Shown here piece after piece: positions 6,001 to 15,000 of a stretch of 44,256 nucleotides of DNA. Numbering within the stretch: the first letter of the stretch is position 1; every line of letters begins with the position of its first letter. Origin of the DNA: an uncultured bacterium (lineage in GTDB: Bacteria; Gemmatimonadota; Gemmatimonadetes; Gemmatimonadales; Gemmatimonadaceae); NCBI GenBank assembly GCA_963978095.1, contig CAXBQP010000023.1, positions 1 through 44,256 on the forward strand, read 5' to 3'. Made by a program: the position numbers.

Positions 6001-9000
6001 CGTCAGCTGCGGGACACCGGCCAAGCGGATGAGGCGCTCGACGTGCTCCGCCAGGGGATGCGCGATGCCGTGGTCGACGCTGCGTTCGTGCGTCGCGTCG
6101 CCGTCGATCTGCTCGATGCCGGCCATGGCGAGGAGGCGTTGGCGGTGCTCGACGCCACCGCGCCGCGCTTCCCGCTCGATGCCGAGCTGGTGCTGCTGCG
6201 TCGACTGGCCTTTCCGTCGGTCTTCCGCGATTCTGGGGAACCCGCGCGTTGGCGCGAGCGCTTGTCGCGCGGACTCGCCTCGCTGTCGCTGGACGACCCA
6301 GAGCTGGCCGCACTTCCGCACGCGGCGTTGATCGACGCGACGCTTCGCTTCAACCCCTACTACGTCGACTATCTCGGCGATGTGTCGCGTGATCTGCATG
6401 ACGCGTGGGGCGACTGGCTCGCGCGCCTGCTCTCGGCCTCCGCATCCACGGGCGCCGCACCAATGGAGGGTGCCACACCCGCGCCACGCGCCGCGGACAG
6501 CCGCATCCGGATCGGCATCGTCGGCGACACGTTGCGCGCGCACGTCGTCAGTGAGTTGTTCGTCGGCTGGGCGACTGCCCTGGACCGCACCCGGTTCGAC
6601 CTCCGCTGCTATGCGTTGCACACCGAAAGCGACCGGATGTCGCAGGCCTTCGAGGCCGCCTCCAGCCGCTTCGTGCAGTCGCCCGACACGGCCGTACTCC
6701 GCGCGGCGATCGTGGAGGATCAGCCGCGAGTGCTCCTGTACCTCGCCGTCGGGATGTCGTCGGCCGTCCTCGAACTCGCCGCGCAGCGCCTCGCCCCCGT
6801 GCAATGCGCGGCGTGGGGACACCCACGCACGACGGGACTGCCGACGATCGACTATTTCCTCGGCAGCGACGCGATGGAACCGCCCGGGGCCGCCGCGCAC
6901 TATCGCGAACGCCTCGTACGCCTCCCGGGGCTCGGTACGACGTTCCGGCTCCCGGATGCACTGCGGCCACTGCACATCAATCGGCGGGCGGACTTCGGGC
7001 TGTGCGATGATGACGTCGTGCTGCTGTGCGCGCAGAACGTCAGCAAGTTCCTGCCCTCCTTTGACACCGTGCTGATCGACATCGCACGACGCGTCCCGGC
7101 GAGCCGATTCGTGTTCGCCGTCGGTCATCAGCGCGGCGGCACCGTCCTGCGGCAACGCATCGCCCGGGCGTTCGAGCACGCGGGACTCGACTGGAGCCGT
7201 CACGAAGTCGCGCTCCCGGAACTCACCCCGCTCGAGTTCGACAACTTGGTGTGCGTCGCCGACGCCCTCCTCGACCCCGACGGCTGGTCGGCGGGCTACA
7301 CCGCCGTCAATGCGGTGGCCTTCGGCCTTCCCATCGTCTGTCGGCCAGGGGCGGTCGCCCGCACGCGCCAGAGCGCGGCGATCTTGACCCTGCTCGGCGA
7401 GACCCGAACGATCGCCGCGTCCGCATCCGCCTACGTCGAGATCGTCGAACGGATCGCGCACGACACCGCGTTCGTCGCCTCGGTGCGCGCGTCCCTGACC
7501 GCTCCTGAGAGGCGGGAACGTCTCGCGAGCGACCCCCGGGCGCAGGCGGCGCTGCAGGCGTTCCTCGAGTCCGCCGTCTCCCGCGTCACGGCCGATGCCG
7601 ACGCCTGCGCGCCCGCCGTTTAGATTTCCCAGGTTGCCCCTGCGTCCTCTCCGCGGCTCGACCCGCTTCACCTCCTGATCCCCACGCAATGCTGAAGCTC
7701 GGCATCGTCGGTCTGCCGAATGTCGGCAAGTCCACGCTGTTCAACGCCCTCACGGCTGCCAAAGCCGATGCGGCGAACTATCCGTTCTGCACCGTCGAGC
7801 CGAACGTCGGCATGGTCAACGTCCCGGATCCGCGCCTCGACCGACTGGCCGAGATCGTGCATCCGGAGCGCACGCTGCCGGCGGCGGTCCAGTTCGTCGA
7901 CATCGCCGGTTTGGTGAAAGGCGCGGCGGAAGGCGAAGGACTCGGCAACAAGTTCCTGGCCAACATCCGCGAGTGCGACGCCATCGTGCATGTCGTCCGC
8001 TGCTTCGATGACCCGGATGTCACGCACGTGATGGGTGGCGTGGACCCGGTGCGCGACCGCGAAGTCATCGAGTTCGAACTGGCCCTCGCTGACCTCGGAG
8101 CGGTCGAGAAGCGTCTCGACAAATCGAAGCGCGCGGCGCGTACCGGTGACAAAGACGCCGCCAGTGAACTGCCGACGCTCGAAAAAGCGCACGCGGCACT
8201 CGCCGAGGGCAAAGCGCTGTGGCATGTCACGCTCTCCGCCGAGGACACGGCATTGTTGCGTCCGCTGCAGTTGCTCACGGTGAAGCCGGTGCTGTATGCC
8301 GCGAATGTCACCGACGCCGAACTGGCCGGGGACGAAGGCACATATCTGACCGCGCTGCGCGCCGCGATCGCGGGATCGAACGAACAGGCCGAGGTGGTGC
8401 CGTTCTCCGCGCGCATCGAGGCCGAGCTCGCGGAGCTCGCACCCGAGGACCGCGCCGACTTCCTGGCGTCCATCGGCCTGGAGTCTGCCGGGCTCGATCG
8501 ACTCATTCGCGCTGGCTACCACCTGCTCGGGCTGCAGACGTATTTCACGGCGGGGGAGAAGGAAGTGCGCGCGTGGACGATCCATCGCGGGGACACCGGT
8601 CCGAAGGCGGCCGGTGTGATCCATACTGACTTCGAGCGTGGATTCATCCGCGCGGAGACCGTGTCGTACGCCGACTTCGTGACGCACGATGGGTGGAAAG
8701 GCGCGCGCGAGAAGGGAGCGGTGCGGTCGGAGGGCAAGGAGTACGTCGTGCAGGACGGAGACGTCCTGCTGTTCCGCTTCAACGTCTGACCGGCCCACTC
8801 CCGGTGGGGCTCGACGCGAGCCCCACCGCGCGCAGGACGAGCCGGATCCAGCGCAGCGGCCAGTAGAGCGCGGTGGCACCCCGTGGCAGCCGGATCCATT
8901 CCGCCTCGCGCGGTGTCGGGACGGCCGCCGCGACCGCCAGCAGTCGCGCCTGATCCCACACCGAATCCTGCGTACGGAGCAGCCAGCGACGCGACCGTGG

Positions 9001-12000: not shown

Positions 12001-15000
12001 CCTCGTTCCGCCGCAGTCCACTGGGGCGGCGTACAGCACGTCACGGACGAACAACTCTCGCACGCCATCGACGCACAGACGCCGGCGCGCGTCGTTCATG
12101 GAGGCGATCGCCGTACCGACGAGGGTGTGGGCGCCGCGCAGATCACCGACGAGGACGGTCGCTTTCCGTGGGAGGGTGACGGCTTCGACGGTCTCGGTGA
12201 TCCACGTGATGCGGTCGCCCACACCGTGCCGGGCGGCCAACTCCGGGCCGATCGCCAGCAATGGACTCGGTTCGATCGCATACACGTGGTCCGCGCCCGA
12301 CTGTGCGGCAATGACCGCGAAGTGGCCGGCGCCCGCGCCCACCTCGAGCACCACGTCGTCGGCCGACACCATGTGCCGCAACGCACGGGCCATGGGTGCC
12401 CCCCGGCCCGGATCCGCGAACATGGACTGGAGATGTTCGAGACTATACATGCCGCTTACGGTATCCCTGCCCGCAACCAGTTGTCGAGTGCCAGGACACG
12501 CCACGCGTGATCGATCGCGTCCGTCGCGGTACCCGCCAGCGCCGTATTCACCTGCGCCGGGTCCACCCAGCGGCTGACTCGGTCGCTGACCGTTGGCGGA
12601 TGCGCCCCCTGCTCCGCACGCCAGGTCGCCACGATGGACGACGACGGCGTCCGGACCGGTGTCTTGGGACGACGCAACACCTCGTCCGGCAGCGTGCCGC
12701 GAAAGGCGCGACGCAGGAGTTCCTTGCGCTGCAACCACGGTGTCGTGGGAAGCGACATCACCAATCCCAGCAGCCGCAGGTCCATGAGCGGCCACGCCAC
12801 CTCGTGCCGCAGCGCCCCAAGGACGCCGAAATCAGGCTGCGTCACCATCTGGAAAAACGGATGCGTGACCCGAGCCACGGTATCCGGACGGACCAACGCC
12901 GTCATGTCATGGCATGGCAGCGGAACGGCGCGTGCGGCGGCGTCCCGCCACCGAGCCGCCAGCCACGCTGGAGCCGGCGGCTCGACCTCGGGTGGGGACC
13001 ACCACTCGCGCAGCCGCAGCCCCGTGTGCGGCTTGCGTCCACTCTGGACGGCGAACCGCGCGAGACGCGCGATGGTGCGCACGGTTCCGAACCGTCGACG
13101 CTCCTCGGCGAACGACGAGGGGAGCAGCAGCCCGTCGCCATCCTCCCCATTCAGCTGCACGCGCCCATGCGCGGCCATCGCCGCCACGATGCGCATCTCA
13201 CGTCCGTTCGAGACGGAGTTGGTGGGCTCGGGCAGTCGCTCGCGGGGGATCTCGTCGACCCGCATCCCCGAGTACCCAAAGGTCGTCACCACATGTCGTG
13301 TCCCCAGCCGCTGCGCGACACGGCGCGCCAACGGCGGTTCCGGGTCGTCCATCGCGTCCGGCCCGGCGATCGTCACCGAGGTCACGTCGACCCCCGGACG
13401 CACGCGGCGAGCGGTGGCCGTGAGACTCGGCGAATCGAGCCCGCCGGACAACGGGATCACTACCTCCGGCAGCCGCATGCGATCGGCGACCGCATCGCCA
13501 AGCACTGCATGGAACTCGGCGATCACCTCGCGGTCGGACCTCCGTGACGGCGCCGGCGACGGCGGCTGCCACCAGACGCGGCGCCGAATCGAGGGGCCGC
13601 CGAGGGCAATGCTCGACCCGGACGCGAGCCGATGGACATCCGCGAACACCGTCCGCGTGACGTCCGTGGCGTACCCGACGGCCAAGGTGGAGGCGATCCA
13701 CGCATCGTCGAGCCCGTCCGACACGTCGGGATGCGCACGCACCGCGTCGATGGACGACGATACCACGATTCCGCCGCGGATCGACGCCCAGTACACCGGG
13801 CGGATCCCCAGGGCGTCGCGCGCCACCAGTCCGCGGCCGGCGCCGGGATCCCACAGGACGAACGCATAGTCCCCCAACACGCGGGTGAGCATCTCCTCCC
13901 CCCACGCCTCCCAGGCCGCCAGCAGCAACCCCTCGTCGTCGCCGATCGCCGGCGGACGCACCCCTGCGACGCGCAGCGCCTCTCGCAGTTCGCGTTGCGC
14001 ATCCACGCGGACATTGCCGGTCAACAACACGCCGCGTGCCGATCGATGCGGACCGCACCGCGCGCCCTCGCGCGTGGTCATCAGCGCATGCACCATGGCC
14101 ACCCCACCACGGGGCGCGTCGCTGTCCCTCGGGGCGACCGTGACCGCGTTGAGGTCGTCGTGGGGGGCCCGCGCGAGTTCCGCGCGCAGGCGGGCGAGGA
14201 CGGCGGGAGCGAGCGGCGGACCGTCGACGGTGATGACCGCCGCGAAGGCGCTCACGGTGCGCTGGAGTAGGCCGCCAGCGCGGCGAACCGGGCGAACTCG
14301 GCGTCACCGACGACCACCAGCCCATCGCTCTCCACCCACGCATGGGCGTCGATGGGTCGCCCGTCGCCGGCGGCGGGGGCCACGCCGATCCGGAGTACGG
14401 CCGCCACCCCTTGCGCGCGGAGCAACCATTCCGCCGCCAGCGCTTGGGGGAGGCAGGGGGCGCTCGGGAAGGTCCGGGCGGCCCGGCTCAGCGCTCGGCG
14501 CACCGCCCAGGCGTGCATCGGCGACGCCACCGCCGCCGAGCGGTGGCGTGCTGCGAGGCGTGCGTCCATCCACGCACGGATCCTCGGAAAGGGGACGAGC
14601 ACGAGTGCCATGCGGAAGACGACCAGCCACCAGACGGCGCGCCAGGACAGGGTGCGCTCCGCCGCGCTGAGCGCCGCGAGGCTACGAAGTCGGCTCACCC
14701 ACAAGGTCGAGCAGGCCTTTGTCCGCGAGTTCGGCGCTGATCCGGAGGACATCGCGTTCCGCCGTGTCTCGGTCGACGTCGAAGGTCGCGGTGACATGGT
14801 CCACGACCGCAGCCAGCGCGACCGGCTGTTGCATCCGTCCCCAAATGGTGGCACCCACGGCATTGAGGCCGAAGTAGATGCCATCCGTCATGTGCAGGAT
14901 GACCGCTTCGCCGGAGAGTGTCGTGGAGACTTGATGCGTCGAGGCGACCACGCGCGACGAGAGAGCCAAAGGCTGGGACATGGGTGCAACATAGTGACCG

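Follow-up and report, generated by a model that had tools for sequence, protein, structure and literature searches.

What does a lasso-peptide gene cluster make when a methyltransferase gene lies beside its precursor gene, and where does its leader end? The question is raised by a 44,256-nucleotide stretch of DNA from an uncultured member of the Gemmatimonadaceae (hereafter the window), in which positions 8779-14981 of the minus strand are confirmed to be a lasso-peptide biosynthetic cluster of seven genes (Table 1). All seven ORFs are intact, lie on that strand and are found where the initial annotation had placed them, and its lasso-cluster reading and gene roles are borne out by family matches for the seven genes. 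B1 matches NF033536 lasso_PqqD_Bac at 8.1e-15, under the model cutoff, and B2 matches NF033537 with 76.2 bits (cutoff 33) over residues 77-201 of its ORF. The start of B2 is uncertain (14752 or 14698 likely, with the ORF open to 14884), and N has an alternative start at 9987. The cyclase contains the SGGLDS motif and scores 145 bits against the lasso cyclase model NF033535, under its cutoff of 525; the HPr-kinase-like protein K has the P-loop GPSGAGKST, both of its family matches being under the curated cutoffs. The methyltransferase gene lies between the cyclase and precursor genes and starts 5 bases past the cyclase stop.

Table 1. Coordinates of the island and of its seven genes in the window.
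Feature	Position	Strand	Evidence
Island extent, ~6.25 kb, ychF-rpsF interval	8788..15033		blastn vs G204
B1, PqqD-like RiPP recognition element (RRE), 99 aa from ATG at 14981	14682..14981	-	PF05402 PqqD 9.2e-17; NF033536
B2, transglutaminase-like leader peptidase	14252..14752	-	PF13471 Transglut_core3 7.2e-20; NF033537 lasso_biosyn_B2
C, Asn-synthetase-like macrolactam cyclase, 599 aa	12456..14255	-	PF00733 Asn_synthase 2e-26; GATase_7 1.2e-16
MT, PRMT-fold SAM methyltransferase, 391 aa (P0001), putative C-terminal three-helix RRE-like domain ~300-385	11275..12450	-	CARM1; Foldseek PRMT6/PRMT2
A, precursor peptide, 55 aa	11034..11201	-	NF033521 lasso_leader_L3 19.5 bits, cutoff 19
K, HPr-kinase-like P-loop protein, 340 aa	9980..11002	-	TIGR04352 HprK_rel_A 2.1e-7; Hpr_kinase_C 3.3e-3
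N, NTP_transf_5 nucleotidyltransferase-like protein, 412 aa	8779..10017	-	PF14907 4.8e-39, 134.9 bits, cutoff 31.2

The closest relative (G204, of the same genus, with a YchF 97% identical) aligns by blastn to window positions 7616-8787 and then, 56 bases on, to 15034-16475. Exactly 8788-15033 is missing from it, so that the cluster stands out as a cleanly bounded island of 6.25 kb, flanked by ychF and rpsF, intact and horizontally variable; it is an indel relative to this genome and hence not a product of chance. No transporter gene was found within the island.

The precursor leader reads Y18-x2-P21-x-L23-x3-G27-x5-T33-R34, and the fit to the lasso leader motif reported earlier holds. Reading of the 21 residues after T33-R34 likewise confirmed that their single acidic residue is Asp at position 11 (Asp45). 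P21, L23, G27, T33 and D45 are invariant in an alignment of 40 precursors (A3). The 20 leader-bearing short ORFs that had been described in 15 loci were found again (20 ORFs in 15 of 30 loci); the D-G-G and basic C-terminus attributed to them are frequent without being general, and the window has D-S-S where D-G-G is usual. Its core is rich in Ser, Thr and Lys, repeats STKTS and ends in SRSG.

It appears probable that the island makes a kinase-type ("paeninodin-like") class II lasso peptide, extended by a SAM-dependent methyltransferase of the PRMT fold. Every step of the route is proposed from homology. B1 would bind the YxxPxL part of the precursor and, with the leader still attached, K would phosphorylate a Ser or Thr near the C-terminus (within SSRSG), lasso kinases being described in passages of two papers as working on the leader-bearing precursor (PMC8498205; PMC10368454). 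The C-terminal phosphate could be decorated by N, as by PsmN in pseudomycoidin. The methyltransferase would dock on the leader via its own C-terminal RRE-like domain and methylate the core, most likely at a Lys or Arg side-chain nitrogen, the leader would be removed by B2, and the cyclase would adenylate the invariant Asp45 and join it to the new N-terminus (Thr35 or Ser37). On the other side of the balance are the sub-cutoff matches of K, the transporter missing from the island, the modest scores of the RRE-like domain and a doubtful arginine chemistry.

Paeninodin/pseudomycoidin-type clusters of Paenibacillus and Bacillus comprise A, B1, B2, C, an HprK-like kinase, an NTP transferase and an ABC transporter. 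The window shares with them the split B1/B2, the Asn-synthetase-like cyclase, the HprK-like kinase, the NTP_transf_5 protein and a Ser/Thr at or beside the core C-terminus; it differs in the added methyltransferase, the island without a transporter, the host, an acceptor Ser that is penultimate and not last, and an Asp at 11 past the canonical cut. The Bradymonas bsf cluster (BsfK), as presented in passages of PMC10368454, is also a kinase-type lasso cluster outside Bacillota that follows the rule of YxxPxL at -17 to -12, and it indicates that leader rules can break in this branch; unlike the window, it has Ile for Thr(-2), a kinase target at Ser3, a Gly1-Asp8 ring and no methyltransferase. 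Linear polyphosphorylated peptides (LPP, PMC13381572) resemble the window in combining an RRE, an HprK-like kinase and an NTP transferase on a YxxP-type leader; their clusters use a SpI-like peptidase, in contrast to the B2 and cyclase of the window, and the word methyltransferase has 0 occurrences in that paper.

By sequence and predicted structure, the methyltransferase is a true PRMT-fold enzyme: residues 6-271 match CARM1 at 1.6e-15 (phmmer against the PDB), Pfam PRMT_C is matched by 31 of 35 family members, and the AF2 model (pLDDT 90.9) matches PRMT6, PRMT2 and Hmt1 with E of ~5e-26 in Foldseek. The PRMT-like assignment of the initial annotation therefore stands more strongly as regards the fold; taken literally, as a protein-arginine methyltransferase, it does not, since key arginine-binding residues are lost. 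Like eukaryotic type I PRMTs (CARM1, PRMT6, PRMT2, PRMT1/Hmt1), the enzyme has a Rossmann domain and a beta-barrel and keeps SAM motif I, the post-I Glu and a conserved N-terminal helix with Arg16. Unlike them, it has a double-E loop reading D...G (with an invariant Asp, Asp103, for the first Glu and Gly112 for the second), a THW loop reading RPW, with His changed to Pro (family pattern x-x-Y-G), an extra C-terminal three-helix domain and a place in a bacterial RiPP cluster. Because the second double-E Glu and the THW His are absent, the enzyme is unlikely to be a PRMT specific for arginine, and these changes together with the invariant Asp make arginine chemistry doubtful. Additionally, some cores linked to the methyltransferase lack Arg and some lack Lys (L015 lacks both), so that a single conserved Lys/Arg target does not fit all of them.

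The C-terminal three-helix domain appears RRE-like, its best structural matches, with modest scores, being PqqD and the lasso B1 RRE. In a structural ranking of 48,161 chains (VIA), PqqD was first (Z 5.8) and TbiB1 second (Z 5.6), PqqD or lasso B1 occupying ranks 1, 2 and 18; unrelated three-helix domains also reach Z ~5. Comparison with B1 by hhalign gave P = 6.9e-4 and a probability of 27% (P = 0.68 for the B2 control), and a profile search of the window enzyme and family members gave no match of this domain to Pfam PqqD. Seven same-genus loci have a methyltransferase without this domain.

Homologues of the methyltransferase occur in 49 of 401 genomes of the phylum with a threshold of E<=1e-5; tightening it to E<=1e-13 leaves 35, close to the 36 of 401 reported earlier. 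In 15 Gemmatimonadota loci around closer homologues, K is present in 15, C and N in 14 each, B1 in 13 and B2 in 10, in at least five gene orders; the gap in the single locus without a cyclase lies at a contig end. Lasso loci with the methyltransferase also turned up on metagenome contigs and in records carrying the labels Binatia, Acidobacteriota, Longimicrobiales, Actinomycetota and Myxococcota. The claim that the enzyme travels with lasso genes is upheld by kinase-type lasso clusters in all 15 loci, by their differing gene orders and by the other phyla. Among the distant homologues, some belong to kinase/PqqD modules that have no cyclase, and the same core type occurs with and without the methyltransferase (L066 vs L147-L149). 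The lasso literature searched, including the PTM passages of a June 2026 review, describes no PRMT-fold tailoring enzyme, in agreement with the initial annotation. The SAM-dependent tailoring enzymes described in the passages covered, StspM/LasF (C-terminal methyl ester) and the PIMT homologues LihM/TceM (aspartimide), carry out O-methylation and belong to unrelated families (mitomycin-O-MT-like, PIMT), without a PRMT beta-barrel or a fused RRE-like domain; StspM acts on the linear precursor, as is proposed here.

A less likely role, to be kept in mind, is that of an O-methyltransferase whose target would be not a Lys/Arg nitrogen but the carboxylate at the C-terminus (the target in lassomycin-type clusters) or a phosphate or sugar added by K and N. 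It would agree with the loss of the PRMT arginine-binding residues and with the cores themselves, in nearly all of which only the C-terminus and nearby Ser/Thr are common besides the ring Asp; four loci (L049, L050, L072, L073) in which homologues adjoin HprK-like or NTP_transf_5 genes, no cyclase being found, point the same way, as does StspM, which according to passages of PMC9266682 methylates the precursor C-terminal carboxyl ahead of lasso formation. Asp103, invariant and acidic at the site where PRMTs bind the nitrogen nucleophile, argues against it, as does the adjoining Arg (DLRG), which is not invariant. A further point against it is that no PRMT-fold enzyme is known to us to methylate oxygen. 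That the enzyme is a bystander, such as a housekeeping PrmA-like protein methyltransferase, or that the cluster is decaying without a lasso product, is very improbable: the gene lies inside the indel, between those of the cyclase and the precursor, its association with lasso genes persists across phyla and despite changes of gene order, no ORF is broken, and the enzyme is recorded at 99% identity in other assemblies (10 member sequences). The label "50S ribosomal protein L11 methyltransferase" on its relatives in databases, the core atypical for the family and the missing transporter would fit such a view.

As to where the leader ends, the ring Asp/Glu of 66 methyltransferase-linked precursors lies 7-11 residues past the canonical Thr-x cut, with a mode of 9 (position 7 in 1, 8 in 8, 9 in 36, 10 in 18, and 11 in 3, the window included); acceptors at 10 or 11 define a long class of 21 precursors, leaving 45 in the short class. 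Gly stands at position 1 after the canonical Thr-x in six of the 66 (L195, L078, L193, L200, L203 and L068, acceptor at 7/9, 8 or 9), which fits the usual Gly1 rule and supports the canonical register as valid for this family. Across the wider family the canonical cut is rather the favoured one. In the window, the two options that the initial annotation had named come out about equally likely: a ring of 11 residues, or an unusual cut, here one that gives Ser1-Asp9.

If B2 cuts after T33-R34, Thr35 would be joined to Asp45 in an 11-residue macrolactam and relatives would have 10-residue rings, a tentative reading. Y18, P21 and L23 then fall at -17, -14 and -12, the spacing used for placing lasso cores in passages of PMC10368454, and the acceptor positions from 7 to 11 form an unbroken series. 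A ten-residue macrolactam analogue was made in vitro by the fusilassin enzymes (passage of PMC8498205, citing DiCaprio 2019 and Koos & Link 2019). On the other hand, characterised lasso rings have 7, 8 or 9 residues only in the passages covered (PMC13352647; PMC9266682), and a one-residue change in ring size usually lowers production sharply (passage of PMC13352647); the long class has Gly at position 1 in none of 21 precursors and at position 3 in 10, and the tail SSTKTSSRSG offers nothing bulky with which a large ring could be plugged. A cut two residues later, after T35-L36, where Thr is again at -2, would join Ser37 to Asp45 in an ordinary 9-residue ring, and is just as tentative. Ser is a known first residue of lasso cores, and Ser1-Asp9 agrees with every known rule. 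The run T33-R34-T35-L36-S37 holds this second Thr-x in register, which may be coincidence, since the long class (6/21) shows no excess of Thr at core position 1 over the short class (10/45). A start at position 3 in all long-class cores would give rings of 8 or 9 with mostly Gly, Ser or Ala first, and the Thr(-2) rule is broken in kinase-type leaders with Ile/Val(-2) (passages of PMC10368454). Against the later cut, Y, P and L would fall at -19, -16 and -14, which matches no spacing in the literature covered, 15 of the 21 long-class precursors lack Thr at position 1, and a general "+2" register would leave 6-residue rings in L046, L078 and L081 and lose the Gly1 cases. Should the cut after T33-R34 be the true one, the ring of the window would be larger than any known lasso ring.

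The seven open reading frames of the cluster lie head to tail on the minus strand between ychF and rpsF, overlapping or separated by intergenic gaps of at most 73 bases (see table). The initial annotation had described them as a lasso-peptide cluster, and this description held up: the PqqD-like RRE (B1), the leader protease (B2) and the NTP_transf_5 protein (N) score above their family cutoffs and the lasso leader model also passes its own. The lasso-specific NCBIfam cyclase models stay far under cutoff for the putative macrolactam cyclase C (NF033535, 145 against 525), whose predicted role is supported by its gene context. 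The roles of N and of the HPr-kinase-like P-loop protein (K) were taken from review passages on paeninodin and pseudomycoidin (in PMC9266682 and PMC8498205) and from section 6 of PMC13381572. As in paeninodin-like clusters, an HprK-like kinase and an NTP_transf_5 protein are encoded here, the kinase being recognised below cutoffs with its P-loop present. Unlike the paeninodin type, in which the C-terminal Ser is the phospho-acceptor, the window core ends in S-R-S-G with Ser penultimate; the dedicated ABC exporter of that type is also missing, since no transporter gene was found inside window 8788-15033. A scan for promoters and terminators returned nothing for the minus strand, its sole match being the promoter-like site of rpsF at 15049-15077. 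Judging by its genes, the locus belongs with the paeninodin-like lasso clusters and adds a family of tailoring enzyme that is, as far as we found, new to lasso peptides; it would work like the paeninodin type apart from the place of the acceptor Ser and the missing exporter.

Features of the lasso-peptide locus and its flanks (window coordinates)
Feature	Position	Strand	Evidence or remark
ychF	7689-8789	+	flank of cluster
N	8779-10017	-	NTP_transf_5 4.8e-39; 134.9 bits vs cutoff 31.2
K	9980-11002	-	P-loop GPSGAGKST; TIGR04352 2.1e-7; HprK-related models below cutoff only
Precursor (55 aa)	11034-11201	-	NF033521 lasso leader 19.5 bits vs cutoff 19
MT (methyltransferase)	11275-12450	-	begins 5 bases past cyclase stop
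C	12456-14255	-	Asn_synthase 2e-26 (93.9 bits) + GATase
B2	14252 to ~14752	-	Transglut_core3 7.2e-20; NF033537 76.2 bits vs cutoff 33
B1	14682-14981	-	PqqD 9.2e-17; PF05402 61.6 bits vs cutoff 23.4
rpsF	15188-15559	+	flank of cluster

G204, a genome of the same genus, is the closest relative (YchF 97% identical); its counterpart of this region matches window 7616-8787 and then, 56 bases further on, 15034-16475. Window 8788-15033 is absent there as a single block, and neither a methyltransferase match nor a kinase match was found in the G204 genome. Genomes G055, G085 and G307 of the same genus have lasso clusters adjoining the same ychF. Their methyltransferases are 34–39% identical to that of the window and their YchF proteins 76–84%, so that the cluster versions found at the ychF-rpsF site have diverged strongly. 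Within the genus the junction is variable, being empty in G204 (L167) and occupied in the window and in G055, G085 and G307 (L168-L170); the proteins of these lasso clusters share just ~35–39% identity, against 76–97% for YchF. YchF relatives at 83–85% identity carry the Gemmatimonadaceae label.

The cluster's methyltransferase (MT) has the fold of protein arginine methyltransferases (PRMTs). Its best match among PDB sequences (phmmer) is CARM1 (1.6e-15, residues 6-271), with PRMT6, PRMT2 and PRMT1/Hmt1 next; an AF2 model built from 35 family members (pLDDT 90.9) matches PRMT6, PRMT2 and Hmt1 in Foldseek at E ~5e-26, with TM (query) of 0.64–0.70, and Pfam PRMT_C matches 31 of the 35 members (best 1.1e-12). 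Both the Rossmann SAM domain and the PRMT beta-barrel of type I PRMTs are present, whereas neither their double-E loop nor their THW loop is conserved. SAM motif I, the post-I Glu and the N-terminal Arg16 are retained; in the HMMER alignment the Glu pair of the CARM1 double-E loop is replaced by Asp103 and Gly112, the former invariant in the family and the second position variable, and the CARM1 T-H-W aligns to R-P-W, where the family consensus is x-x-Y-G. The double-E loop and THW residues are the arginine-binding residues of PRMTs, and because they are not kept the enzyme is named here PRMT-fold and not PRMT proper; the earlier PRMT-like assignment thus stands for the fold and not for these residues. 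An exhaustive representative search with MT gave 325 clusters at E ≤1e-30, mostly of ~380 aa and aligned end to end. Relatives are labelled in databases as "type I protein arginine methyltransferase", "class I SAM-dependent methyltransferase" or "50S ribosomal protein L11 methyltransferase", and the ESM Atlas holds only automatic "L11 methyltransferase family" labels. A predicted complex of MT, precursor and SAM gave an ipSAE of 0.00 in two control-free runs, a value that weighs neither for nor against such a complex. One in-frame TGA was observed within the MT match in four genomes (L006 of G395, L054 of G663, G705 and G621).

Three helices make up MT residues ~300-385, preceded by an extended stretch in which H-x-P-x-L is conserved. 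When this C-terminal domain was folded alone (pLDDT 82.9) and compared with 48,161 representative chains (VIA), the best match was the PqqD structure 3g2b (Z 5.8, rmsd 1.9 over 51 residues) and the second-best the leader-bound lasso RRE TbiB1 (5v1u, Z 5.6), with a second lasso B1 (6jx3) in 18th place (Z 4.9); these Z scores are modest, and unrelated helical domains also reach Z ~5. The RRE is a winged helix of three strands and three helices, of which the helical part alone is matched. Alignment by hhalign to the B1 proteins of related loci is in register over the helices (P = 6.9e-4, probability 27%), the B2 control giving P = 0.68, and Pfam PqqD does not match the domain. From the modelled fold and these alignments we infer that the domain may be an RRE in degenerate form, by which the enzyme would locate the precursor with its leader attached. 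It is lacking in 7 of the 31 loci examined, all of the same genus (L007, L011, L012, L013, L055, L057 and L059), where MT ends 23–44 residues past the barrel.

MT is linked to lasso genes well beyond the window. In 15 wide loci (~17 kb each, searched by phmmer with the window's proteins) around its closer Gemmatimonadota homologues, K was found in 15, C and N in 14 each, B1 in 13 and B2 in 10; the single miss for C falls at a contig end. The place of MT among the lasso genes varies, with at least five arrangements seen. A kinase search of the phylum's 401 genomes scored in 57, two of which (G157 and G057) are flagged as unpublished and were otherwise unused; all 15 wide-locus genomes are among the 57. 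Beyond the phylum, a search with a seven-row alignment (A4) found MT together with lasso genes and precursors in records labelled Binatia, Blastocatellia, Acidobacteriota, Terriglobia, Pyrinomonadaceae, Longimicrobiaceae, Actinomycetota and Myxococcota, and MT-bearing lasso loci also occur in ~20 metagenome contigs. The family extends outside lasso clusters through distant members: in L048 and L049 (~7000-10300) the homologue lies with an HprK-like gene and an ECF sigma factor, L050:7869-10529 has a K-PqqD-MT row beside dnaE with no cyclase, and in the cyanobacterial record L072 MT is accompanied by an NTP_transf_5 gene only. Such cyclase-less modules may tailor linear (LPP-like) peptides.

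The window precursor was said to carry the lasso leader motif YxxPxLx3Gx5Tx, and Y18, P21, L23, G27 and T33 are indeed all present. In an alignment of 40 precursors the sole invariant columns are the P, L and G, the Thr at -2, which the search pattern demanded, and the ring Asp. A Thr-free leader pattern gave 12 extra matches with no family-like core, which were judged to be chance. One genus has WxxPxL in place of YxxPxL (L008, L009, L014, L051, L060, L063 and L065), with K-V-D...N-D-G-G...K-R-R-T cores and at most three precursors per cluster; WxxP and YxxP motifs are reported to dictate RRE binding specificity (section heading in PMC13381572). The D-G-G and basic C-terminus claimed earlier for the family are common, although the window has D-S-S and the basic end is found in most cores, not in all: most MT-linked cores end in a basic residue, then Ser/Thr, then 0–2 residues, plausibly a kinase site. 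The window core (11034-11099) is atypical in its D-S-S and in the pentapeptide STKTS, which occurs twice, once on each side of the Asp; it is also of low complexity, its 21 residues including 7 Ser, 5 Thr and 3 Lys.

The spacing of the first acidic residue from position 7 onward, counted from the canonical Thr-x cut, was compared in a pooled set of distinct leader-plus-core strings with a canonical leader, a core of 10–40 aa that ends at a stop codon and has such a residue, a locus with a K, C or B1 match and an MT match at E ≤1e-20; five precursors with weaker MT matches and an uncounted number of cores without an acid at position 7 or later were left out. Among these 66 MT-linked precursors the spacing is 7 in 1, 8 in 8, 9 in 36, 10 in 18 and 11 in 3, ambiguous by one or two positions for L195, L064 and L174. 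The MT-less, kinase-positive loci of the phylum (20 loci, 17 precursors) show 8 in 8 and 9 in 6, the remaining three precursors having long cores that are free of acids up to position 14. Spacings of 10 and 11 were therefore seen with MT only (21/66 against 0/17), a comparison from which no statistical conclusion is drawn because the loci are related, and no other core feature separating MT-bearing from MT-less clusters was found. In the seven loci with domain-less MT, all 10 precursors place the ring Asp 10 or 11 residues past the canonical cut; L011 and L013 among them are two-precursor clusters whose spacings are 10 and 11. The MT-less loci L154 (with a cyclase match) and L161 (with K and B1 only) have canonical leaders and long Gly/aromatic-rich cores, in which the first acidic residue is at 15, 23 or 29, far past any lasso ring position.

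The ring size of the window product depends on the register of the cut. Its 21-residue core has a sole acidic residue, at position 11 from the canonical cut after T33-R34, as the initial annotation had it, and at position 9 from a cut after T35-L36. With the canonical cut, Thr1-Asp11 would close an 11-residue ring, beyond the 7, 8 and 9 residues of characterised lasso rings (PMC13352647, section 15; passages of PMC9266682); the fusilassin enzymes have made an engineered macrolactam of ten residues (passage in PMC8498205), and no other precedent for a ring larger than nine was found in the literature searched. Y18, P21 and L23 stand at -17, -14 and -12 of this cut, a leader spacing by which lasso cores are located (PMC10368454, section 22), and the canonical register is supported in the family by six precursors with Gly directly after the cut, all with spacings of 7–9. 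We hold the 11-residue ring to be a tentative possibility, somewhat short of an even chance. With a cut after the second Thr-x, an ordinary Ser1-Asp9 ring would form, and passages of PMC10368454 report that the Thr(-2) rule is bent by kinase-type lasso leaders. The second Thr-x is itself weak evidence for such a shift, because short-spacing precursors have Thr at core position 1 as often (10/45) as long-spacing ones (6/21), without enrichment. The shifted cut is given about the same chance as the 11-residue ring, and other outcomes take up the remaining probability. A general +2 register, which would turn 9/10/11 into 7/8/9, was ruled out by the Asp8 precursors and by those with Gly right after Thr-x.

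As to the target of MT, a basic side chain that would be N-methylated is the one favoured by homology; some MT-linked cores have Lys only, some Arg only, and the core of L015 neither. O-methylation of the C-terminal carboxylate, or of a phosphate or sugar, would fit the loss of the PRMT arginine-binding residues, the universal presence of a C-terminus in the cores and the recurrent pairing of MT with kinase genes, and we consider it rather unlikely. The claim that a PRMT-like tailoring enzyme is undescribed for lasso peptides agrees with full-text searches of the mostly open literature (few subscription journals, no supplements), which found no arginine methyltransferase or PRMT in lasso or RiPP tailoring; PMC12637814 was set aside as a precedent, as it concerns the unrelated SznE-like methylation of free arginine. 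The passages on modifications in PMC13352647, a review of June 2026, list C-terminal methylation, hydroxylation, epimerisation, a second isopeptide, aspartimide, prenylation, acetylation and cross-links, and N-methylation is not named in them.

Lasso peptides are prized as very stable scaffolds and antibiotics, and their known chemistry comprises rings of 7–9 residues and few tailoring reactions. The ring-size filters of mining tools use 7–9, and a set of the precursors collected here would be rejected by them. Taken with at least 65 related precursors, the window points to the recruitment to RiPP tailoring, in several phyla, of a eukaryote-like PRMT-fold methyltransferase family that is at present mislabelled "L11 methyltransferase". 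In its widest form, which we regard as improbable, the system would be an unrecognised and widespread kinase-type lasso branch combining natural 10- and 11-residue rings with a methylation new to lasso peptides, made by a PRMT-fold enzyme that its own degenerate RRE guides; the added phosphate, sugar and methyl groups may then plug the wide ring, so that a tail of small residues stays threaded. If this is true, rings of 10–11 residues would exceed the 7–9 rule assumed by genome-mining tools.
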